64,000 bases of DNA from Squalus acanthias (taxonomy: Eukaryota). The DNA is taken from contig CM059431.1 in NCBI GenBank assembly GCA_030390025.1, positions 132,744,001 through 132,808,000 of the forward strand, read 5' to 3'. The translations under genes and the position numbers were made by a program. Positions 5,887 through 63,247 of this stretch are shown one piece after another (position 1 is the first letter of the stretch; every line of letters starts with the position of its first letter). Below the pieces are notes generated by a model. The model saw only the letters and a list, made by a program, of their open reading frames with translations, was not told the origin of the DNA and ran no database searches.

Positions 5887-6258
5887 GGGCTCGATTTTGC
5901 CAGGCCCGAGGAAGCGGGAATGGAGGCGTGTGGGGTGTAAAAATTGCAAAAAATGGCGGGCGGGCCTGACCCCGCCTCCGAGCAATTTTCCCAAATGCGT
6001 GGTTTCTGATCCCGTCTCCGTCCTGCCTCCAAAAGGCGGGATAGGCCCTTAAGGCCCTTAACAACCACTTAATTGCCTCTATAATCCCATTTTGAGAGGC
6101 CTTTCTGATTTTAACACTTCTCCGACGTGATGCACGCCTCCTCTGAAACACGGCGGTGAAACCTGGCGGTAGCACACTTCGATTGCTGACTATCAGTTGC
6201 AGGTCCACCATTAAGAAGGACATTTGATCAATCATCATTCTGGGGGAACTTTTAGCAG
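5887..6258. mobile_element. One end of a Harbinger-type element inside the CR1
   Basis: Starts GGGCTCGATTTTGCC, like the other Harbinger TIRs here. No second end found. Confidence 0.6.
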
Positions 6259-7017
6259 TCCTCCCCCTCCCTCCTCCACACCCCCTCCTCCTCCCCCCCC
6301 TCCTCCCCTCCTCCCCCCTCCTCCTCCTCCTCCTCCCCTCCTCCTCCACACCCCCTCCTCCTCCCCCCCTCCTCCCCTCCTCCCCCCTCCTCCTCCTCCT
6401 CCTCCCCTCCTCCTCCTCCCCTCCCCCTCCTCCTCCCCTCCTCCTCCTCCCCCTCCCCCTCCTCCTCCTCCCCTCCTCCCTCCTCCTCCCCCCTCCTCCC
6501 CCCCTCCTCCTCCCCCCTCCTCCCCCCCTCCTCCCCTCCTCCTCCCCCTCCTCCTCCTCTCCCCCCCTCCTCCTCCCCCCTCCTCCTCCTCCCCCCTCCT
6601 CCTCCTCCCCCCTCCTCCTCCTCCCCTCCTCCTCCCCCTCCCCCACCTCCTCCCCCTCCCCCACCTCCTCCCCCTCCTCCTCCTTCCCCCACCTCCCCCT
6701 CCCCCCTCCTCCTCCTCCTCCCTCCCCCTCCCCTCCTCCCTCCCTCCCCTCCCCCTCCCCCCTCCCCCTCCCTCCTCCTCCCTCCCTCCTCCTCCCTCCC
6801 TCCTCCTCCTCCCCCTCCCCCTCCCCCACCTCCCCCCTCCCTCCCCTTCCCCCCTCCTCCCTCCCTCCCTCCCTCCCCTTCCCCCCTCCTCCCTCCCTCC
6901 CTTTCCTCCTCCTCCCTCCCTCCCTTTCCTCCCTCCCTTTCCTCCCTCCCTTTCCTCCCTCCTCCTCCCCCCCCCCCCTCCCTCCTCCTCCTCCTCCTCT
7001 CCTCCCCCCCTTCCCCT
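6259..7017. repeat. ~760 bp polypyrimidine (CCT/CCCT) low-complexity tract
   Basis: Almost only C and T on the + strand. Includes a ~70-bp internal tandem duplication near 6271-6410. Confidence 0.95.
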
Positions 7018-10000
7018 ACATCTACTGGTTCACCTTTATCCACCTTGCTTGTTACATCCTCAAAGAACTCTAGAAAATTTGTCAAACACGATTGCCCTTT
7101 CATAAAACAATGCTGACTCTGCTTGATTGTATTATGATTTTATAAATGTCCCGCTACTACTTCCTTAATAATGGACTCCAGCATTTACCCAATGACAGAT
7201 GTTCGGCTAACTGGTCTATAGTTTCCTGCTTTCTGTCTCCCTCCTTTCTTGAATAGGGGTGTTACATTTGCAGTTTTCCAATCCACTGGGACCTCTCCAG
7301 AATCCAGGGAATTTTGGTATTTTGCAACCAATGCATCCACTATCTCTGCAGCCACTTCTTTTAAGACCCTAGGATGCAGACCATCAGGTCCAGGGGACTT
7401 GTCCACCTTTAGTCCCATTAGTTTGCCTAGTACTTTTTCTCTAGTGATAGTGATTGTTTTAAGTTCCTCCCTCCCTATAGCCCCTTGATTATCTATTATT
7501 ATTGGTATGCTTTTAGTGTCTTCTACCGTGAAGACCGATACAAAATATTTGTTCAAAGTGTCTGCCATTTCCCTGTTTCCCATTATTAATTCCCCAGTCT
7601 CATCCGCTAAGGGACCAATGTTTACTTTAACTACTCTCTTCCTTTTTATATACCTGTAGAAGCTCTTACTGTCTGTTTTTATATTTCTTGCTAGTTTACT
7701 CTCATAATCTATCTTTACCAGAAACTTCACATGAACATTGGCTAAACCACCCTTGTGTGTTCTTAGTTGGTATGCTTGCAGTAGGATGAGGGTGAGTGTG
7801 AGGGGTGGCTAGTGAGATGGGGAAGTGATAATGCAGATAGAGAGGGATGGGTGGAGGTGCAAGGTAAGTTGGTGTGAGTAAAGATGTGCAGGAGTATGGT
7901 AGGGAAGGCAGAGTGATGTGGATGTGATGAGTGGCACAGCAGGATGAGGTTGAGTGTGGCTTGGCAGTAACATTTCGTGATCTACTGAGATCATTGAAAG
8001 GTTTGCGCCACTGCAGCCTGGTCCTCCTGACGACATCCCTGCTTGTGCCCTCCTGTGCAATGTGCAACCAGGCTGCGTTGGTCTCCTGGGGAGGTGTCTG
8101 CTGCCCATTGGAAGGGAAGAGAACCTCCCTGCGTGCTGTGACTCCCTCCATAAGCATATGGAGGGAGTCATGGGAGAGCCTGGGTACATCCATGCACCTT
8201 TGTGCAGTGCTTGTCCGTGTTTGCAGCACTTCAATGCTTCAGAACACTGACAGCACAACTGTCAAAATCAATGTGGACATGGCCCCTTTAAGGAAACCGG
8301 CTGATAACACGTCATCAGATGATGTCATCAGACCCGCTTCCCTTTAATTAGCTGGGAACCTCGCAGGGCGGGCTTAAGAAGCCCAATCAGGGCAAAATCA
8401 CTTGGAAGATGCGTGATGAAGACGGGTGCGGAGTTTGTGGCCGCTGTCTGCTCCGGCCGCACCGGACTCGCCATGGCTGGCGAAATCGCGGCCGGTATGT
8501 GTGGATATTTGGTTAAAACAGGATTGGACTTGGCTATGATGCCCCTGCAGCTGGAAGAATGGGCCCAAGGAAACATATTCCAGCAAGATAGCAGGAGAGA
8601 AAAAATGGCAAAAAAAATTACATTAGACTGATATTTACATTACCAATTTCAGCTATAAACTAAACTGACAGTTATACTATTATCTTTATTTTGATCAGAT
8701 GGACTGTGATTCTATAGGGACTAAGTTGAAATCCAGTCCAGCCAGATGGAATAAGCTTCCTATCTGAAAAGTTGGTAAAGGCCCTTAAGTGAAAATGTTT
8801 GAGCAGATCTCAGCTCAGATCTCATTGTGGATATAGATCTACAGCTCAAAGTTTTCTGTTTTTTAGCAGTTCTACACATAGAAATAATAAAGGTAGTTGG
8901 TTTGGGAAATGCAGATTGTCACATGGGGCTGGATTTTCCCAGCGGAGGCGGGATCGCAGCGGGAGAGGTAGTTGGCAGGTCCCGCTCCCGGCTCCAGCCG
9001 CTCTGTGAAAACAATTTTGCGTGAATTGGGCTTGTTAAGCCCGCCATGCACGTTACCCGGCCCAATTACAAGGTGCGGGTCTGGTGACGTCATCTGATGA
9101 CGCGTTTGTTGCCGGTATATATGAGGGGGCCATGTCCCCATTTGCTCTCACTTGTGCAACAAGGTGCTCTCCAGCTACTTGCTAGTAGAGAAGTGCGGGT
9201 GGCCCATGACAGGGATGATGGTGGGTGGGGACATGGAAGTGGGGGCTCCTCTCCAAGCGCTCAAACTTCCACCCCCTTGCCAACCCCTCGGTCAGAGCCC
9301 CAGATGCCTCGCCGGACAGTGATGATCGAGTCTGCCCCTGCACAGCCGCAGGAGGAGCAGACTTTGGCGGGGCCCTCACAGGCTCCAAAACCCAGAGGAC
9401 AACTGCCAAAGGTGTCTAAGCAGGCACAGCAGGGAAGTGAGCAGGCTGCCTCCACCTCTGCTGAAGCCACAGAGGTAGCACCACGTAGAAGCATGTGTAA
9501 AAGAAAGATCCCACATAAATAGTCACAAGAGTAGTCACTTGGGTGATTTGCTATAAATGAATGTTAAGTTTCTGTTCTTTTACTTTGTTGTAATAAATAA
9601 CTTTTTTCTGATTGTTTGCATTCGTTGCCATATGTGTGCCCACAATTGGAAGTGGCAGAGTGAAGGGTGAGGGTGCCTTTTATGTCCAGCAATGGCGGTG
9701 ACAGTGCAAGGAATGCACAATTCATTGTAGAGATGCTCTATGGTGTTGAAGTGGGGTCATGCCAACCTTCATGCACATGTGGCAGCCACATGTCTGTGCT
9801 GCATAAAGTTAGGTGAATCTGGCACTGATTAGGCCATCCCTGGCGTTACGGGCAGCAATGTGCTCGCGTGCTGATCGCATTGGGTCAGCCGCCTCCTCCA
9901 GGTCTTCCTCATGCTGAACCTCATTCTGCTCCTCCTCTGAAGAGGCTGTTTGCTCTGCGCCTTGTTCCTCATGTAGCACTGATCCTCGCTGCGGTGCGAT

Positions 10001-10225
10001 GTTGTGCAGGGCACAGCAGACAACGACGATTCTCGAGACCCTGGCTGGTGTGTACTGAAGGGCTCCACCAGATCTGTCCAGGCATCTGAAGCGCATTTTG
10101 AGCAACCCTATTGTTTGCTCTATGAGACTTCCGGTGGAAATGTGGCTTTGATTATAACACACCTCAGACTCGTTTGATGGCCTCCTCAAAGGTGTCATCA
10201 GCCATGTCTTCAGGGGATAGCCTTT

Positions 10226-11878
10226 GGCCGCAGTTTTAATTCAGCTGAGAGGGTGGGTTTGGAGGCGGGTCGGCAGCGAAAATCGGAAAAACTGCCGGCG
10301 GCATGCGAACCCGCCTGCATCCCGCCTCCACGCTATTTTCGCAAGTGTCGGGTCAGCCACTCCCGAACTGACCCGACACCAAACGGCGGGGAAGGCAGTT
10401 AACTCCTTGTTAACTGCCTTTCTAATCCTATTTTAATGGGGGGTTTGCGATTTTGGTGCTTTTTTTCCATCTTCCCCATCTTTCAGGAAATATGCCACCT
10501 GCAATGAGTCAGGTTTCTTGAGGTCATGAATTGTTGTAAGTTGGTGCAGCAGCGTTAAAGCGCTCCTGCATCATGGCTGACATTCAAATGCCACAACTTT
10601 GTTGTTTGATGTTTTGGCAAAGATTTACCTACTCTACTGGACTTGTGAGTGTTCAAGCTGAGAGCCATCTGCAGTGTGACCTGTTTGGAGTATCCTCAGG
10701 CCACTTTGTGCGCTTGCAAGCTTCTTTCCTCAACTGAAATCTATAGCAACGGTATGGGACCCATTTTCACCCTCTCATCTTGTTCATCAGATTCTGAGGA
10801 AGAGCAGCCGCGGCAGCAGCACAACCAGCCACAACAACTGTTTGCCATCACTTTTGTTTAATGACATCACAAAAGGAGCACAATAAAACACCCAAGTGAC
10901 TACCCTTGTGACTATTTGTGTGTTAACTTCCTCTTACACGTGCTTCTACCTGGTGCTTCCTCTGTGGCTTCAGCAGATGTAGAGGCACCTTGCTCACTTT
11001 GATGCTGCGCCTGCTTAGACGCCTTTGGCGGGCGTCCTCTGGGTTTGGGAGCCTGGTAGGGCTCCTCCACAGTCTGCTCTTCCTGCAGCTGTGCAGGGGC
11101 TGAGATGGTTATCTCAGTTGGGTGAGGACTCAGTGACTCTGACCGAGGACTCCGCAGTGGCATGGGAGTGTGAGCGCTGGAGAGGAGCCCACACTTCCTT
11201 GTTGGCTGCCACCAACATCCCTCTCATGGGTCAGCCGCACTTCAGTGCTAGCAAGTGGCTGGAGAGCACCTTGCTGCACATCAGGGGGGCCATGAGAACC
11301 CGTCTCTGTTCTGACATTCCTCATAACAAGAGTGCTGGTGATGAGAAGAGTAGGGAAGCAGATTGAAGGTAACTGTGATGTGATACTCACTTTTGATGTT
11401 TGCAGAAGATCATTGAAGCGTTTTTGGCACTGTACCCAGGTGCGTGCACATACCGACCTTGTGCTTACCTCCTCAGCAATCTGATGAGGAGGCTTCCTCC
11501 GGCCATCAAGATGGAACAGAATCTCCCTGTGTCCTCTTACTCCCTGCACAAGAGCTTGCAGGGAGTCCTCAGTGAATCGGGGAGCAGCTTTGGCTTTGGC
11601 AGCACTCATGGCCACCTTGGCCTATTCAAGCTGCAGAAGCAACGATAAATGAGAGGCTGAGGCTACATGGAGCCCTTAAAACAAGTGCAAAAATGACCTC
11701 ATTAGTGCAGACCAACAGACCCGCTCCCACGCATTGCAGCAGGCAGGGCGCACGACGGGACTAATTGATCCATTAAGGCAAAATGGGACGTCGGGAGTGG
11801 CTGAAACCTGCAGCGGGTCCGAACCCCACCCACCAGGCAACCCGACTCCAAGCCGCCTCCTCCATTAAAATTGCGGCC
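10226..11878. mobile_element. Nested non-autonomous Harbinger inserted in the GDKGY codons
   Basis: TIRs GGCCGCAGTTTTAAT / ATTAAAATTGCGGCC. TSD TTT/CTT; the uninterrupted site in the second transposase copy reads GGATAGCCCTTGTC. Confidence 0.9.
11391..11609 (-). pseudogene. First exon of the Harbinger Myb/SANT-like DNA-binding protein gene
   Basis: Encodes MSAAKAKAAPRFTEDSLQALVQGV...IAEEVSTRSVCARTWVQCQKRFNDL. Followed by a GTGAGT donor at 11390-11385. Confidence 0.8.
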
Positions 11879-12335
11879 CTTGTCTCCAAAGGAGCCAGCC
11901 AGGAAGTTCATTTGGCGGTGCGAAGAGCTGAGGGACAGTGGACTGCCGCAGGATGTAAGAGTCATGGCAGCTGCCAGGGAACTTGCTGCACACATGCATG
12001 ATGCTCTTCCTATGGTTGCACACAAGCTGCACGTTAAGGGAGTGGAAGCCCTTGCGGTTGACAAATGCTGCTGGGCTCTGATGGGGTGCCCTGATGGCCA
12101 CATGTGTGCAGTCGATGACGCCCTGCACCCGTGGGAAGCCAGCCAGATTGACAAAGCCGAGCGTCCGCTCGGTAACACTGGCTTCATCAGTGGAAAAGTG
12201 GATGTAATTGGCAGACTTGTCAAAGAGGCCATCGGTGACCTGCGTAATGCATCTGTGGGCGGCCGACTGGGAGATGCCGCTAATGTCTGCTGCAGATCCC
12301 TGGAAGGACCCTGACGCAAAGAAGTTGAGTGCAGT

Positions 12336-12522
12336 ATAACAACAGAAAACGCTGGAAAAACTCAGCAGGCCAGGCAACATCCGTGGAGAGAGAAAGAGAG
12401 TTAACGTTTCAGGTCGAAACCCTTCGTCGGAACTGAGAGAGCAAGAAATAAACAGATAAAAATGCAAGGGGGAGGCTGGGGGGAGGAATAAAAGAACAAA
12501 AGGGATGGTCTTTAGTGAGTAG
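12336..12522 (-). mobile_element. Penelope-like pLTR fragment inserted in the transposase
   Basis: 16-bp TSD AGAAGTTGAGTGCAGT at 12320-12335 and 12523-12538. Homologous to the pLTR of the GIY-YIG element at 47234-48028. Confidence 0.85.
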
Positions 12523-13581
12523 AGAAGTTGAGTGCAGTGGTGACTTTCACAGCCACTGGTAAGGCGTGTCCACCCGCTCCTCTGGGCTGCAGCTCCTGAT
12601 CGAGCATTGTGCAAATGGCTGCGACTACCTGTCGCGAAAGTCTCAGCCTCCTTTGGCACTGCTGCTCAGTCATGTTGAGGAAGCTCATCCTCTGCCTGTA
12701 AACCCTGTGTTGTGGGTATCTCCTGCAGCGCGGTGCAGCCCTGCCCTGATGGCCTCTGCCCTGCACAGCATCAGTTGGTTGAGGAGAAGGTTGACGCTCT
12801 TGTTGTTGGTGCTGCTGGTGTACCTGGTTCTGCTGCTGCAGCTGATCGTGGTCAGATTCTGAGGACCAGGGTGAGAGAGTATAAATCGTTCCCATTCTGC
12901 TGTTATATATGGCAGGTGAGGATGAGATGTTAGAAGCAATCATACAATGGGGAGAGAGGTTATTCCAAGGAGGTGACAGTGGATATAGAGTTTACAGCAC
13001 ACACTTACAGCCTCAATAAAGATCAAATGTGTCTTCCAAATCCTGAAATCAGCAACTTCTGACATTTGAAAGTGAACAGATGTGAAAGGTTAGCTTTTAT
13101 ACTGCAGTTGCAGCTGTGAACTATTCAGCTCGATGGAACCCCCGACATACTTATCTGATGTGATCTCTGAACGACGTGAACTCCGTTAAAAATGTGGTAA
13201 AATAGAAATAGGCACTTAACAAGCATTTAACTATCTTAAATACCTCCCCCGCCCCTTGGTGTCGGGTCTGTTCTGAAATCGCAGACCCGACACTTTGGAA
13301 ACTTACGTGGAGGCGGTTTCGGTGCGGGCTCCCAACCTGCTGTCAATCATTTCGATTTTGACAGCGGACCCGCCTCCGAGCCCGCCCTCTGAGCGCCTGG
13401 CAAAATCGCGGCCATGGTGTGCAGTAAGGGTTATTCTTATAAACCATTTTAGCAGGACAGCCTCGAGTGACCACTTCCCTGCACCTCCCCAAAAACAAAT
13501 GCACTTTATAGATTTTAGGCAAGTAACATAGATCCTTTAATGTTATTGAGTGATCACAAGGCCTAACCATTGGAGGAAGTA

Positions 13582-13901
13582 CAGGTTGAGCGTCCCGAAT
13601 CCGGCAACCTCAGGACTGAGGCCGAGCCGGTTTTCGGGTTTTTCCGGACTTCGGAACGTGTTTCTGATGTCCGAAGTCCGGAAATGTCCGAGCCCAGGTT
13701 GCGATATTTCTGGACTTCGGACATCAGAAACATGTGCCGAGTCCGGAAATGCCTGGGCCCAGGTTGCGCTATTTCCGGTTTTTGGTAAGCCTCCCTTAGG
13801 GTGTCCGGATTCCGGAACATTTTACAGATTCCAGACCCCTGCCACCAATCGTCCCGGACTCTGGAACATTCCAGAACTCCGGATTTGGGACGCTCAACCT
13901 G
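13582..13901. mobile_element. Tc1/mariner (Tigger/pogo-type) MITE
   Basis: 23-bp TIRs CAGGTTGAGCGTCCCGAATCCGG / CCGGATTTGGGACGCTCAACCTG, TA TSD, and internal inverted repeats. Confidence 0.9.
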
Positions 13902-19320: not shown

Positions 19321-19348
19321 GCTTTTACTGGCTGTCCATGAGATTCCC

Positions 19349-19554
19349 TGATGCGGAGATGCCGGTGTTGGACTGGGGTGGACAAAAATGAGAAGTCGCA
19401 CAACACCAGGTTATAGTCCAACAGTTTTATTTGAAATCACGAGCTTTCGGAGCGCTGCTCCTTCGTCCTCCTGACCTGACGAAGGAGCAGCGCTCCGAAA
19501 GCTCGTGATTTCAAATAAAACTGTTGGACTATAACCTGGTGTTGTGCGACTTCT
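19349..19554. mobile_element. Short Penelope-type inverted-repeat insert (hairpin element, copy 1)
   Basis: 12-bp TSD CATGAGATTCCC at 19337-19348 and 19555-19566. Perfect 80-bp arms at 19388-19467 and 19478-19557; the last 3 nt of the right arm overlap the TSD. Confidence 0.85.
19472..19508 (+). ncRNA. Minimal type I hammerhead ribozyme motif
   Basis: TGAC-CTGACGA-A-GGAGC-AGC-GCTCC-GAAA-GCTC-GTGA. Core boxes and stem II are intact, stem III is palindromic, and stem I is weakened. Confidence 0.6.
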
Positions 19555-19931
19555 CATGAGATTCCCGGTCTTGCTGATCCTCACCAATGAAAGCAAATTG
19601 AGAGCAGAACGGCCATTGTGGGAGTTGAACAATTGACAGTTAAAAAAAATCACATAAATACTCACGCCTTAAACCTGCTTCCTTGCCTAAGGGAAAGGCT
19701 CTTGTTGGCAGCATTTGTGCTGAGAATTTGCTTTCAGGAGTTTGCAGGTGATTTCTACAACTTCGAAAGTCACACGCACTACATTGGAAGTCATTCTCCT
19801 TGGATGTCACTCTCAGTACATTGGAGGATTGTGCCTCTGATCTCCACTTTACCCCTGGCATCTATCAGATCAGCATGGGTGCTGCGTTTACTGTTTCACC
19901 TTGGACCTCCGATTCGGACCAAGATGAGCCC

Positions 19932-45547: not shown

Positions 45548-47233
45548 TCTAACTCATCTCTTTACTCTCCCACAGGTCCATCAAGAGCCCCTCCCACTGT
45601 CCAGGAGGAAGAGGAAGAAGAAAAGCCTCCAGCCTTTGAGGGCGCACCATCAACAGACATAAGCATACCCAGCACCAGCGCAGATACACACACCTCGGTG
45701 GGTGCCACGTGAGATAGAGTAGTGTTGTCACCTGGTGTCTCACAACTCACAAGTGAGCAAGAGCAGATGGTGGAGACAGCGACAGCAGTGGAGACTCCTC
45801 ACCAGAGGGTGCAGGATGCTCCCAGCTCTGCTCAGCTGCATGCAGACGCTGAGCTTTGGGAGCCATCCAGAAAGAGGGCGATCCTGGAGGTGCAGCAGGA
45901 AGTGCAGGAGGCTTTGACAGGTTTTGCGACCGTGATGTCTGTAAATGTTCAGAGAATGGAGGAGTCCATCTCCAACATGAGCTCTACCATGTCGTAGACG
46001 ATGGCAACTGTAGGCTCTTCCATGGAAAGGATGGCCACCTGCATGGAGCAACTAATCCAACACTCACAGGAGCACATGGTCTCTATGGAGAATAGATGGC
46101 TATCTATAGAGAATAGATGGCAGGCGCTCATAGACCTCCTCTCTAGGAGGGATGTCAATGTAGACATGGGTTCTCATGGCCCCATTGCTGTGCAGCAAGT
46201 TGCTCTCCAGCTCCTTGTTAGCAGGGAAGTGCGGGTGGCCCATGAGAGGGATGATGGTGAGAGGGGACATGGAAGTGGGGACTCCTCTCAAAGCGCTCAC
46301 ACTTCTCCCCCATTGCCCCCCACTCAGTCAGAGCCCCAGATGGCTCCTCGGATCGCGATGGCCGAGTCTACCCCTGCACAGTCGCAGGAGGAGCAGACTT
46401 TGGCGGGGCCATCACAGGCTCCAAATCCCAGAGGACGTCCGCCAAAAGTGTCTATGCAGTCGCAGCAGGGAAGTAAGCAGGCTGCCTCTACCTCTGCTGA
46501 AGCCACAGGGGTAGCACCTCGTAGAAGCATACATAAGAGAAACATGAAACACAATTAGATGCACAAGGGTAGCCACTTGGCTGTTTTAATAAATGTTTGT
46601 GTAAAGTTTCCGTTACTGTGATGTCACAGATAAAAATATTTATTTTCACCACTTTCCTGTCATAAACAAATTTGTTTGCAACGTTGAGTGAGTTGGAGTG
46701 AATGGTGAGACATAACATTACCTCCAGCAATGGTGGTGAGTGTGAAAGGAACGGCCTGGTCATTGTAGGGATGCTTTATAGTGTTGCTGTGAGGTGTTGG
46801 GAGCCTGGCACAGCATGTGGCAGCCATATGGGTGTAATGCGTGAAGTTAAGTAACTCTGGCCATGATGATGCCATCCCTGGCCTCCTGGGCAGCAATGTG
46901 CTTGGGTGCTTGACCGTAGGTTCCTCCTCCTCCTCCTCCTCCTCCTCCTCTGAAGAGGCTGTGTGCTCAGTGCCTTGCTCCTCATGCAGCGCTAATCCTC
47001 GCTGCTGCACTATGCTGTGCAGTGCGCAGCAGATCACAACGATTCTGGAGACCCTGGCTGGTGCATACTGAAGGGCTCCTCCAGATCTGTCAAGGCATCT
47101 GAAGCGCATTTTCAGCATGCTTATTTTCTGCTCTATGACACATCTGGTGGAAATGTGACTTTCATTATATCTCTCCTGGGTTTCAGTACTTGGCCTTCTC
47201 AAGGGTGTCATGAGCCACGTCTTCAGTGGATAG

Positions 47234-48028
47234 AAAAGCAAAATACTGTGGATGCTGGAAATCTGAAATAAAAACAGAAAATGCTGGAAATACTCAGCAG
47301 GTCAGGCAGCATCTGTGGAGAGAGAAACAGAGTTAATGTTTCAGGTCAATGACCCTTCGTCAGAACTGGAAAAAGTTGGAGATGGAACAGGTTTTTAAGC
47401 AAGTGTAGGGGCAGGGAAAGGGGGGAAGGGAGGAAAGAACAAAAGGGAACTCTGTGATAGGATGGAAGGCAGGAGAGATTAAGAGACAAAAGGGATGATG
47501 GTGCAAGGCAAAAGGAGATGGTAATGGGACAAGTTAAGAAACAAAAGATGGCTCTAGATGAAATGTAAATGGCAATGGCTGAATGATCGACAGCTGCCAT
47601 GTGAGAGAGAGAGAAAAAAAAGATAGGGGCAGAGGTTATGGTCTGAAATTGTTGAACTCGATGTTGATTCCAGAAGGCTGTAAAGTGCCTAATTGAAAGA
47701 TGAGGTGCTGTTCCTCGAGCTTACGTTGAGTTTCATTGGAACAGTGTAAGAGGCCGAGGATGGAGAGGTCAGAGTGGGAGTGGAGCGGAGAATTAAAGTG
47801 ACAGGCAACCGGAAGCTCGGGGTCACCCTTACGGACTGAACGGAGGTGTTCCGCAAAGTGGTCACCCAATCTGCATTTGGTCTCCCCAATGCAGAGGAGA
47901 CCGCATCGTGAGCAGCAAGTACAGTATACTAAATTGTAAGAAGTACAAGTAAATCGCTGTTTCACCTGGAAGGAGTGTTTGGGGCCCTGGATAGTGGGAA
48001 GGGAGGAGGTACAAGGGCATGTGTTGCA
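47234..48028 (-). mobile_element. Penelope-like element 3' part: GIY-YIG endonuclease plus pLTR
   Basis: [36 protein letters not shown]...LEEQHLIFQLGTLQPSGINIEF. 14-bp TSD TCTTCAGTGGATAG / TCTTAAGTGGATAG at 47220-47233 and 48029-48042. Confidence 0.92.
47331..47367 (-). ncRNA. Minimal hammerhead ribozyme motif in the Penelope pLTR
   Basis: The - strand reads AGTT-CTGACGA-A-GGGTC-ATT-GACCT-GAAA-CATT-AACT. Sister copies have GAAACGTT at this position. Confidence 0.65.
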
Positions 48029-48524
48029 TCTTAAGTGGATAGCCCTTGTCTCCAAGCAGCCAGCCGGAAAGTCTGTTTGGAGGAGCGAAGAGCTGAGGGA
48101 GGGTGGATTCGTGAAGGACGAAAGAGTCATGGCAGCTGCCAGGGGATTTTGTGCACACATGCATGATGATCTTACTATGGTTGCAGACGAGCTGCATATT
48201 GAGGGAATGGAAGCCCTTGCGGTTGACAAAGACTTCTGGGTGATGAGGGGGTGCCCTGATGGCCACATGTGTGCAGTCGATGATGCTCTGCACCTGTGGG
48301 AAGCCAGCCAGAGTGGCAAAGGCCAGCGCCCGCTCAGTAACACTGGCTTCATCAGTAGCAAAGCTGATATAATTGGCTGACTTGTCAAAGAGGACATTGG
48401 TGATCTGTGTGATGCATCTGTGGGTGGCCGACTGCGAGATGCCGCAAATGTCTGCTGTAGATCCCTGGAAGGAGCCTAAGGTGAAGAAGTTGAGGGCGCT
48501 GGTGACTTTGACAGCCACTGGTAA

Positions 48525-48793
48525 GGCAACACGGTGGCATAGTGGTTAGCACTGTTGCTTCACAGCGCCAGGGACCCGGATTCAAAACCAGCCCGTTCTC
48601 CCCGTGTCTGCGTGGGTTTCCTCCTACAGTCCAAAGATGTGCAGGTTAGGTTGATTTGGCTATGATAAATTGACCCTTAGTGTTAGGGGGGATTAAATAC
48701 GTGGGGTTACGGGGATAGGGTGGGATATGTGTCGGTGCAGGCTCGATGGGCCGAAATGGCCTCTATCTGCACTGTGGGGATTCTGTGATTCTG
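48525..48793 (+). mobile_element. HE1-like V-SINE
   Basis: tRNA head with A box TGGCATAGTGG and B-box-like GATTCAAAACC. V-domain GTTCTCCCCGTGTCTGCGTGGGTTTCCTCC. CR1-type tail GATTCTGTGATTCTG. Confidence 0.88.
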
Positions 48794-61349: not shown

Positions 61350-61685
61350 TCCGCCACCCTGGGTATGTCCTGTCCCACTGGCATGACAGACCCACCAGTG
61401 GTATACAGTTGGGAAGCAGTGGCCCTGAGAGTCCTCAAGATTGACTCCGGACCCCAGGAAGTTTCATGGCATCAGCTCAAACATGGGCAAGGAAACCTCC
61501 TGCTGATTACTACCTACCAACCTCCCTCAGCTGATGAATCAGTACTCCTCCACGTTGAACACCACTTGGAAGAAGCAATGAGGGTAGTAAGGGCATAGAA
61601 TGTACTCTGGGTGGGGGACTTCAATGTCCATCACCAAGAGTGGCTTGGTAGCAACACTACTGACCGAGCTGGCATTGTCCTGAAG

Positions 61686-61912
61686 TGGTCATGATGCGGA
61701 GATGCCGGTGTTGGACTGGGGTGGACAAAATTGAGAGGTCGCACAACACCAGGTTATAGTCCAACAGTTTTATTTGAAATCACAAGCTTTCGGAGCTATC
61801 GATTTGCTCCTTCCTCACTTCACCTGAGGAAGGAGCAAATCGATAGCTCCGAAAGCTTGTGATTTCAAATAAAACTGTTGGACTATAACCTGGTGTTGTG
61901 CGACCTCTCAAT
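61686..61912. mobile_element. Short Penelope-type inverted-repeat insert (hairpin element, copy 2)
   Basis: 12-bp TSD ATTGTCCTGAAG at 61674-61685 and 61913-61924. Perfect 88-bp arms at 61730-61817 and 61825-61912. Confidence 0.88.
61820..61862 (+). ncRNA. Minimal type I hammerhead ribozyme motif (apparently intact)
   Basis: TCAC-CTGAGGA-A-GGAGC-AAATCGATA-GCTCC-GAAA-GCTT-GTGA. Stem I is TCAC/GTGA, stem II is 5 bp, and stem III lies within palindromic AAGCTT. Confidence 0.7.
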
Positions 61913-62212
61913 ATTGTCCTGAAGGACATAGACTGGGCTTGCGGCAGGTGGTGAGAGAACCAACACGAGGGAAGAACCTTTTTGACCTCGTCCTCACCAA
62001 TCTACCTGTCGCAGATGCATCTGTCCATGACAGTATTGTCCTGTCTTCACACTGAGGTCACTGAGGTTGTGTTGTGTGGCACTACCACAGTGCTAAATGG
62101 GATAGATTCAGAACAGATCTAGCAGCTCAAAACTGGGCATCCATGAGGTGCTGTGGGCCACCAGCAGCAGCAGAATTGTATTCCACCACAATCTGTAACC
62201 TCATGGCCCGAC

Positions 62213-63247
62213 TGTAAGCATCGAACGCAGGCCCCAAGTTCATTTCAGACTTTTTGAATGATTATTACCAACAGCCTGTTTGGAGAAGATGGGAGGGGCC
62301 CAGGTGTTCGTGAACAGGAGATTCCAGCCAGGCCTACAAACTAATTATGGGAGAATGTCTGGGCAGACAGAATTCTCTGGGAAGACAATGGGTCTGGGGA
62401 GGTGACTCATATGGTCACAAGCACCTAGATGAGATAGCCCCGAAGGCGGGAACCAGACAAAAGAGAGCCATTGTAAATTAATGGGAAGCCACTTAACCCA
62501 GGATCAGGTGAGAAGTGTGGCCCATCATCTGCCATTATCACCAGCACCTAGTTGGGATAGCCCCGAAAGGCAGGAAACCAGACAAAGAAGACAAAGAAGG
62601 GTGATTAAAAAGACATCACTGCAACTACACAGACCGGAGAGGACATAGAGAAGGCAGCTTTGGCCTTTCGCTCTCTCTCTCGCTTGCTCTAAACCACCAC
62701 GAGCAACAAGAGCCTCGCCTTGCTCTTCGAACCTCGAAACTAGGACTTGGATACTGCATCGGCGATACGGAACCAGGAGACACGTTCTACACAGGGGAGC
62801 AGCGAGCAAGAAAACGGACAATCAGGGTGAGCATTGTCCAAGCCCACGCATCCTTAAGACCACCGGTACTGTGTGAGGGGGTGTTGTGTGTCCCAACCAA
62901 GCCAGAGGGGTTTAGTGGGGAGGTTCTGTGTGTATTATATAGTGTATGTTCCGGGGTTTGTGGGACAAGTCCGTGTTATACTCTGTATAGCAACACAGTG
63001 TGATTTTAGGCGTCTTAATACGAGACAGGGGCCTGTTCGACGGTCCAAGTTGTATTGTTGTACTATTTGTTTTACGCCACCAGGCATTTTACATACTGGA
63101 GGCGGGTGTGTGTATTAACTTTATTAAACACCGTACGGTTGAGTCCGAAAAGCTTGTCTGTGTCCCAATCCTGTTCACCGTAATTCCTGTCGTATAGAAC
63201 TAAGTAGGGGGGGGGGTGATTCGAACCACCAGAGCAAACCACCTACA
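62213..63247 (+). mobile_element. Solo LTR (~1035 bp) of an ERV or Gypsy-type element
   Basis: TGTA...TACA termini and a 4-bp TSD CGAC/GGAC. The host LINE rejoins across it. Internal direct repeat GATAGCCCCGAAGGC occurs twice. ATTAAA near the 3' end. Confidence 0.8.

Follow-up and report, generated by a model that had tools for sequence, protein, structure and literature searches.

Penelope-like elements with an endonuclease (EN+ PLEs) are described in a recognizable arrangement, in which adjacent, inverted and 5'-truncated terminal repeats (pLTRs), mostly placed head to head, carry a tail of 30–40 bp at one end only and are accompanied by a target-site duplication (TSD) of 8–10 bp (PMC3846280, PMC8557442). 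These two papers, of 2013 and 2021, leave open how the inverted junctions and the tails are formed. The protein of PAc, the Poseidon element of Anolis carolinensis, has been studied in vitro, where it nicks and extends both strands and starts at two internal sites of an unprocessed RNA, the spacing of which corresponds to the tail (Frangieh et al. 2024, PMC11167929). The PLEs of metazoans also carry minimal type I hammerhead ribozymes (min-HHRs). According to the literature, pairs of these motifs on opposite strands are found 100–700 bp apart, and most of the motifs are single ones coming from truncated PLEs. The non-LTR retrozymes, which are short, non-coding, provided with a type I hammerhead and related to the PLE terminal repeats, form head-to-tail arrays giving circular RNAs (PMC7229834; 10.64898/2026.07.22.740005), and Li et al. 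also admit minimal motifs as retrozyme hammerheads (10.64898/2026.07.22.740005). One cartilaginous fish with retrozymes is included in a 2026 preprint, and a literature search over titles and the beginnings of abstracts found no account of PLE hammerheads in sharks.

The DNA analysed here (the window) is a stretch of 64,000 nucleotides from the shark Squalus acanthias. It contains an insert of 227 bp, hereafter copy 1, which reproduces the arrangement of the EN+ PLEs on a very small scale and which is probably a dead-on-arrival stub of one of these retrotransposons, consisting of two head-to-head repeat ends. As a single locus it is of little weight, being one of many young PLE stubs, located in an old LINE, and following a pattern that is already in print. 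As a population such stubs could be useful, since the places where minimal fold-backs end and are joined bear directly on the way in which PLEs make their inverted repeats and tails.

Anatomy of the insert and its target site

Copy 1 occupies positions 61686-61912 and has identical 12-mers at both sides (61674-61685 and 61913-61924). Its arms, at 61730-61817 and 61825-61912, are complementary at 88 of 88 positions and leave between them a loop of 7 nt (61818-61824). An earlier note on this DNA had given the length of the insert, the 12-bp TSD, the 88-bp arms and the 7-nt loop, and the coordinates bear out all of them. The same note had described the insert as a perfect hairpin, which is right for the arms and overlooks a tail: the hairpin-forming bases are only 183 of the 227, and the 44 nt at the left end (61686-61729) are unpaired. 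The fold of the hairpin had a z value of -23.8, none of 200 shuffles being as good, and the window has only three perfect inverted repeats of at least 20 bp with a loop of at most 50 nt (88, 80 and 21 bp).

The left arm, read on the - strand, corresponds to a 5'-truncated terminal repeat with the tail, where a likely start site of reverse transcription (site 2) is located. The right arm, on the + strand, is a tail-less terminal repeat and ends at the other likely start site (site 1), and the loop, on the same strand, is continuous with it. The right arm carries at its 5' edge an initiator-like TCACTT (61815-61820, + strand), whose TCA is common to both arms and constitutes a 3-nt microhomology at the junction. 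An Inr-like TCACT is present in a rotifer pLTR (PMC3846280), and the shark hexamer could, as far as its letters indicate, be a transcription start. In addition, a hexamer resembling a poly(A) signal (AATAAA, 61868-61873, + strand) is placed 10 nt past the predicted hammerhead cut and precedes GU-rich sequence. Past site 1, six of the first seven target bases agree with the sequence by which the element itself continues. Around this site, the tail at 61705-61713 can pair with the arm at 61744-61752 in a 9-bp stem; no variants are listed in either strand of it among the contigs described below, in which the enclosed stretch varies, and the predicted stem was no better than those of shuffles (z -0.75 and -1.66).

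A repeated 12-mer is weaker evidence of a target duplication when taken alone, as 224 of 63,680 window positions have an identical one 200–300 bp downstream. In the public sequencing run X1, however, contigs of the host LINE family pass from the left flank to the right flank through a single target copy (25 at 61685, 31 at 61673). Copy 1 is thus a true insertion with target duplication, in agreement with the retro-insertion proposed in the earlier note. The interrupted host is an old LINE remnant: the frame of the left flank (61599-61685), with the left TSD copy inside this endonuclease-coding remnant, gave a weak match to Exo_endo_phos_2 (E 3.5e-4, below the curated cut-off). The eight longest listed pieces of X1 showed 13–17 differences to the LINE of copy 1 per about 105–125 letters, and this divergence, compared with the perfect arms and duplication, points to an insertion far more recent than the LINE that holds it, provided that no later homogenisation has affected the arms.

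Two further observations concern the target. Both copies of the duplication start with ATT (61674-61676 in the left one), where the sister-LINE consensus has CGA, so that the change falls exactly at the edge of the duplication; the ATT improves the match to the site-1 sequence of the element, and the simplest reading is an older change in the LINE of copy 1. ATT is also the cut motif most frequently used by PAc (PMC11167929). In one X1 contig, with 25 letters on the short side, LINE position 61685 is followed immediately by element position 61731, at the tail-less end; a sister LINE may perhaps have been hit independently at this site, which would then be a hot spot, or the contig may represent a deleted allele.

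A second copy in the window

A BLAST search against the window revealed one further member of the family at 19349-19556, with 88% identity over 220 columns. This second copy has its left 12-bp TSD at 19337-19348 and the right one at 19555-19566, the first three bases of the latter being common with the arm. Its tail, of 39 nt (19349-19387, - strand), is on the same side as that of copy 1, and its hairpin (19388-19557) consists of perfect 80-bp arms (19388-19467 and 19478-19557) around a 10-nt loop with a sequence unlike that of copy 1. Only the last four bases of this loop are native, the other six being a junction insert. These six non-native bases include a 5-nt direct duplication, attributable to slippage or to a templated insert. 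The insertion site of copy 2 is the end of a LINE fragment.

Within each copy the arms are identical (88/88 and 80/80). Between the copies, the stem II loop of the hammerhead, four further positions and the junction differ, and each copy has its private variants on both of its arms. Arms alike within a copy and unlike between copies imply that each hairpin was made at insertion from a one-armed template. The end points are nearly the same in both, differing by no more than 2 nt at site 1 and 6 nt at site 2, and site 1 of copy 2 has three bases matching the target. All four arms of the window end at most 12 nt from the initiator-like TCACTT, and in both copies the loop continues the tail-less arm.

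The arrangement of both copies is that of the EN+ PLEs (PMC3846280, PMC8557442): adjacent and inverted 5'-truncated terminal repeats placed head to head (2/2), as the earlier note had supposed, a one-sided tail (of 44 nt for copy 1 and 39 nt for copy 2), a short TSD of 12 bp enclosing the whole unit and a retroelement as target. The differences are the extreme truncation of copy 1, which is reduced to 227 bp in total without any ORF, a TSD somewhat longer than the 8–10 bp of rotifers and tails of 39–44 nt where 30–40 have been published. Similarities with PAc were also found, since in both cases two end points with a spacing of about 40 nt lie in AC-rich sequence past the hammerhead, and uncut RNA is copied (PMC11167929). 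In contrast to the shark repeat, whose only ATG is at the end of the tail, the ORF of PAc begins at stem II, and PAc primes without target homology whereas site 1 of the shark copies matches its target at 6/7 bases (copy 1) and at three (copy 2) (PMC11167929).

The family in sequencing runs

Four public runs were compared with a stretch made of one arm and the LINE flank (61560-61824), which gave 10,226 contigs in X1 and 1,750 in X15, host LINE included, 9 reads in X21 and none in X22. None of the pieces listed spans 61560-61824 completely. Many contigs leave the element at 61690/61691 and enter unlike flanks (53 + 66, that is 119, in X1; 14 + 13, that is 27, in X15), the agreement beyond this point being 0.37–0.45, and so the family has a fixed end at the tail. 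This end lies in an ATG; the 4–5 bases beyond it are private to copy 1, whose tail measures 39–40 nt up to the family end.

The evidence on loose ends comes from the 14 rows listed out of 298. The letters of the loop upstream of the hammerhead core recur in the loose-end rows at 61796 (22 contigs in X1 and 14 in X15) and 61804 (2 contigs in X15), which identifies the 7-nt loop of copy 1 as native sequence of the element. Opposite-strand joints among those listed were one in X15 and none in X1. The summed depth, which is no copy number, was about 5 times lower in the tail than in the adjoining arm and fits a tail that is optional. The peak summed depth of the repeat relative to the LINE flank was about 87 times in X15, a run that is RNA only by guess, and about 8.5 times in X1, and these ratios are no measure of expression.

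The hammerhead motif

The motif of a minimal type I hammerhead extends over 61820-61862 on the + strand of copy 1. Stem I has 4 bp (61820-61823/61859-61862, UCAC/GUGA) and is followed by the core CUGAGGA (61824-61830), an extra A (61831), a stem II of 5 bp opened by the pair G61832-C61850 (61832-61836/61846-61850) and the GAAA box (61851-61854). The bases G-C-U-U at 61855-61858 take the place of helix III, and the predicted cut falls between 61858 and 61859. On the - strand a G stands in place of C3 and stem I lacks its 5' strand, so that the core is broken there, as had been noted before. In copy 2 the core and the GAAA box are retained on the + strand, and stem I is damaged by the junction. 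Among the 14 loose-end rows, the core is kept in one row of X1, as in copy 2, and changed in one of X15; contigs that end close to the variable loop mask variants there. In stem II, the loop of copy 1 (61837-61845) has 9 nt, including a 6-nt palindrome, and that of copy 2 has 3 nt.

All the sequence features of the metazoan PLE min-HHRs were recognized in copy 1, confirming the type assigned in the earlier note: the CUGANGA core, the GAAA box, a NUH cut site (CUU, 61856-61858), the extra base between positions 9 and 10.1, the G10.1-C11.1 pair, a palindromic 15.2-16.2 (G-C inside AAGCUU), a short helix I and an AU-rich 3' flank, which agree with the consensus of Fig. S3 in PMC4209133. Opposite-strand pairs are likewise known in these elements, and the lamprey Poseidon entry has the same stem I, UCAC/GUGA (PMC4209133). 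The list in that figure differs in being without cartilaginous fish, and the shark copy has a U at the cut site (PMC4209133).

A descriptor of the minimal hammerhead, a search suggested in the earlier note, found this motif as its single match on both strands of the window, whereas 40 Markov resamples gave 0.025 per 64 kb. The covariance search suggested alongside it was negative, with no hammerhead among the 15 Rfam matches obtained at E ≤ 10. Folded in isolation, the 54-nt motif did not outperform shuffles (z -1.44). The claim of an intact hammerhead is thus sustained as to the completeness of the motif on the + strand and not by the covariance models or the fold, and the ribozyme may be called intact by motif only.

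Pair probabilities in the isolated 54-mer were 0.69–0.79 for stem I and 0.96 for stem II, versus 0.0 for both stems in the whole insert. The folded insert is thus predicted to bury the ribozyme in any read-through RNA, which fits the sequestration by the antisense arm that had been proposed, and scattered perfect hairpins of 80–90 bp would be a predicted source of dsRNA in such transcripts. When two ribozyme strands were co-folded, they paired by way of the palindrome in the stem II loop and formed no dimeric hammerhead, the AAGCUU duplex alone amounting to -6.5 kcal/mol; this speaks neither for nor against the dimeric form. Because it has no tandem partner and is buried in the hairpin, the ribozyme of copy 1 is predicted to be inactive at its locus. 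Activity there is also unlikely in view of the published data, as min-HHR monomers showed no cleavage (PMC4209133), the Anolis PLE hammerhead required the protein of the element (PMC11167929) and just one of nine Xenopus retrozyme dimers cleaved. The best explanation of the ribozyme is that it travels as a passenger of the terminal repeat.

Origin of the insert

It is the anatomy of the repeat that leads us to infer a Penelope parent for it. A protein search for the parent ORF, expected to encode a PLE RT and a GIY-YIG nuclease, was made with the frame that leads to the ATG of the tail; it gave one spurious match and a second search gave none; the match, a repetitive protein of 4,818 aa whose score summed weak repeats, was rejected. 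Pfam gave nothing in the three window fragments compared (3/3), and the repeat DNA had no matches in viral, metagenome and prokaryote collections, which is expected for an animal repeat and uninformative.

From the two copies we infer the following course of events. The GIY-YIG nuclease of the element would nick the target on both strands, with a stagger of 12 bp. Aided by 6 bp of homology, the end on the bottom strand would prime cDNA synthesis at internal site 1, and that on the top strand would do so at site 2, which lies about 40 nt further in the 3' direction. Both arms cross the ribozyme cut site, which indicates that the RNA serving as template for both cDNAs would be uncut. The cDNA started at site 1 would extend to the 5' edge of the hammerhead and then switch template at TCA/TGA (a 3-nt match in copy 1) to antisense arm DNA, either its own or that of the site-2 cDNA. 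That the tail-less cDNA ran furthest before switching is suggested by the tail-less arm, which reaches further 5' and supplies the loop in both copies. Finally, repair would seal both halves, leaving identical arms, a one-sided tail and a loop owned by the tail-less arm.

A more specific version of this course, which we put forward tentatively and regard as rather doubtful, is that the stub is a run-off product, similar to a strong stop: reverse transcription would start at the two internal sites in the first terminal repeat of the transcript and would leave the 5' end of the RNA at the initiator, just before the hammerhead. The stop of the four arms at no more than 12 nt from TCACTT is consistent with it. 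If this were true, it would account for lone minimal hammerheads vastly outnumbering full PLEs, and thousands of 200-bp hairpins would be a genomic record of how PLE junctions and tails are formed, with the loop always on the tail-less arm. A literature search, with most subscription journals outside its coverage, found no twin-priming or run-off account of PLE inversions.

The position of the loop on the tail-less arm (2/2 copies) constrains the formation of PLE inversions and weighs against a different course with the same PLE origin, in which a single cDNA folds back and copies itself, or primes itself on antisense RNA, and a nuclease later trims the tail on one side. Perfect arms with their private variants in common would be obtained in this way too, the 3-bp closure TCA...TGA bounds the 7-nt loop of copy 1 exactly, and both self-priming and a nuclease-mediated resolution of tails have been proposed (PMC3846280, PMC8557442), self-priming on an antisense template being the reading given to such junctions by Arkhipova in 2013 (PMC3846280) and one that the shark copies would also allow. 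However, as the loop joins the tail-less arm in both copies, the tailed strand cannot simply have folded back, and after a fold-back of the tail-less strand the tail would need a second priming event or later trimming. Moreover, DNA folding of the 36-nt cDNA end gave no 3-bp closure, and the in vitro reaction extends both strands and makes use of two start sites (PMC11167929). We consider a single cDNA unlikely. It is quite improbable, in our opinion, that the template was a short one-armed RNA of about 135 nt, which would begin at the initiator-like site, extend to the tail and belong to a non-autonomous and SINE-like PLE derivative with its own transcription which is sometimes inserted as a fold-back. 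The abundance of the family (10,226 contigs in X1 and 1,750 in X15, host LINE included) speaks for such a template, as do three loose-end rows which agree up to the TCACTT/ACTT edge and then diverge, the variation of the stem II loop between copies and the existence of non-autonomous elements derived from pLTRs (PMC8557442). Nevertheless, a full PLE transcript would have this stretch as its 5' leader, so that short copies do not need a separate master, and the three rows rest on few contigs past a median of 11–18 loose letters.

In the earlier note the hairpin itself had been regarded as a retrozyme-like, non-autonomous element, which would spread as a whole. Two non-coding copies in 64 kb, near-equal in size and junction position and with a hammerhead motif, would suit this view, which is very improbable all the same. 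A hairpin spreading as a unit would share its loop; the loops differ and the arm variants are private to each copy, and the hairpin is therefore not the spreading unit. Non-LTR retrozymes are marked by tandem head-to-tail units with at least two complete hammerheads (PMC7229834; 10.64898/2026.07.22.740005), whereas both shark copies are head-to-head pairs with at most one complete motif. This motif is also of the minimal form and has no helix III loop, in place of the helix III and the contacts between loops 1 and 2 of retrozymes, and its stems have a pair probability of 0.0 in the folded insert. MITEs and fold-back DNA transposons have inverted repeats at both termini and a centre common to their copies. 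Such an element, a microRNA hairpin or an inverted duplication made later by repair would also explain a long perfect hairpin, and microRNA models of Rfam do match below threshold; these and the other Rfam hairpin models were all below gathering (the best microRNA with 54.5 of 142 bits) and were rejected. But the inverted repeat stops short of the left end, leaving one-sided tails of 44 and 39 nt, the copies have different loops and share no centre, and intact TSDs enclose the whole unit in both of them. This anatomy largely refutes the three proposals, which are scarcely credible here.

Other features of the window

A remnant of a second PLE-like family was found at 47230-48025 on the - strand, where a GIY-YIG-like ORF ends and is followed, about 270 nt downstream, by a decayed hammerhead core (47363). 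The ORF end is 66% identical to a Mobula protein which bears a weak GIY-YIG match. This remnant suggests that PLEs with hammerhead motifs live in the genome, but it is not the parent of the fold-back family. Shorter relatives of the 47230-48025 repeat are present at about 12336, 26250, 32977 and 53570. In addition, the frames at 9809-10240, 11702-12665 and 46660-48545 resemble what we take to be pieces of Harbinger-type transposase. Other repeats of the window are the 21-bp perfect inverted repeat at 13659-13732, which surrounds 32 nt, two pairs of short direct repeats at 62415-62591, 123–125 nt apart, and a long pyrimidine-rich simple repeat of CT/CCT units at about 6250-7020, inside the remnant of a LINE reverse transcriptase.
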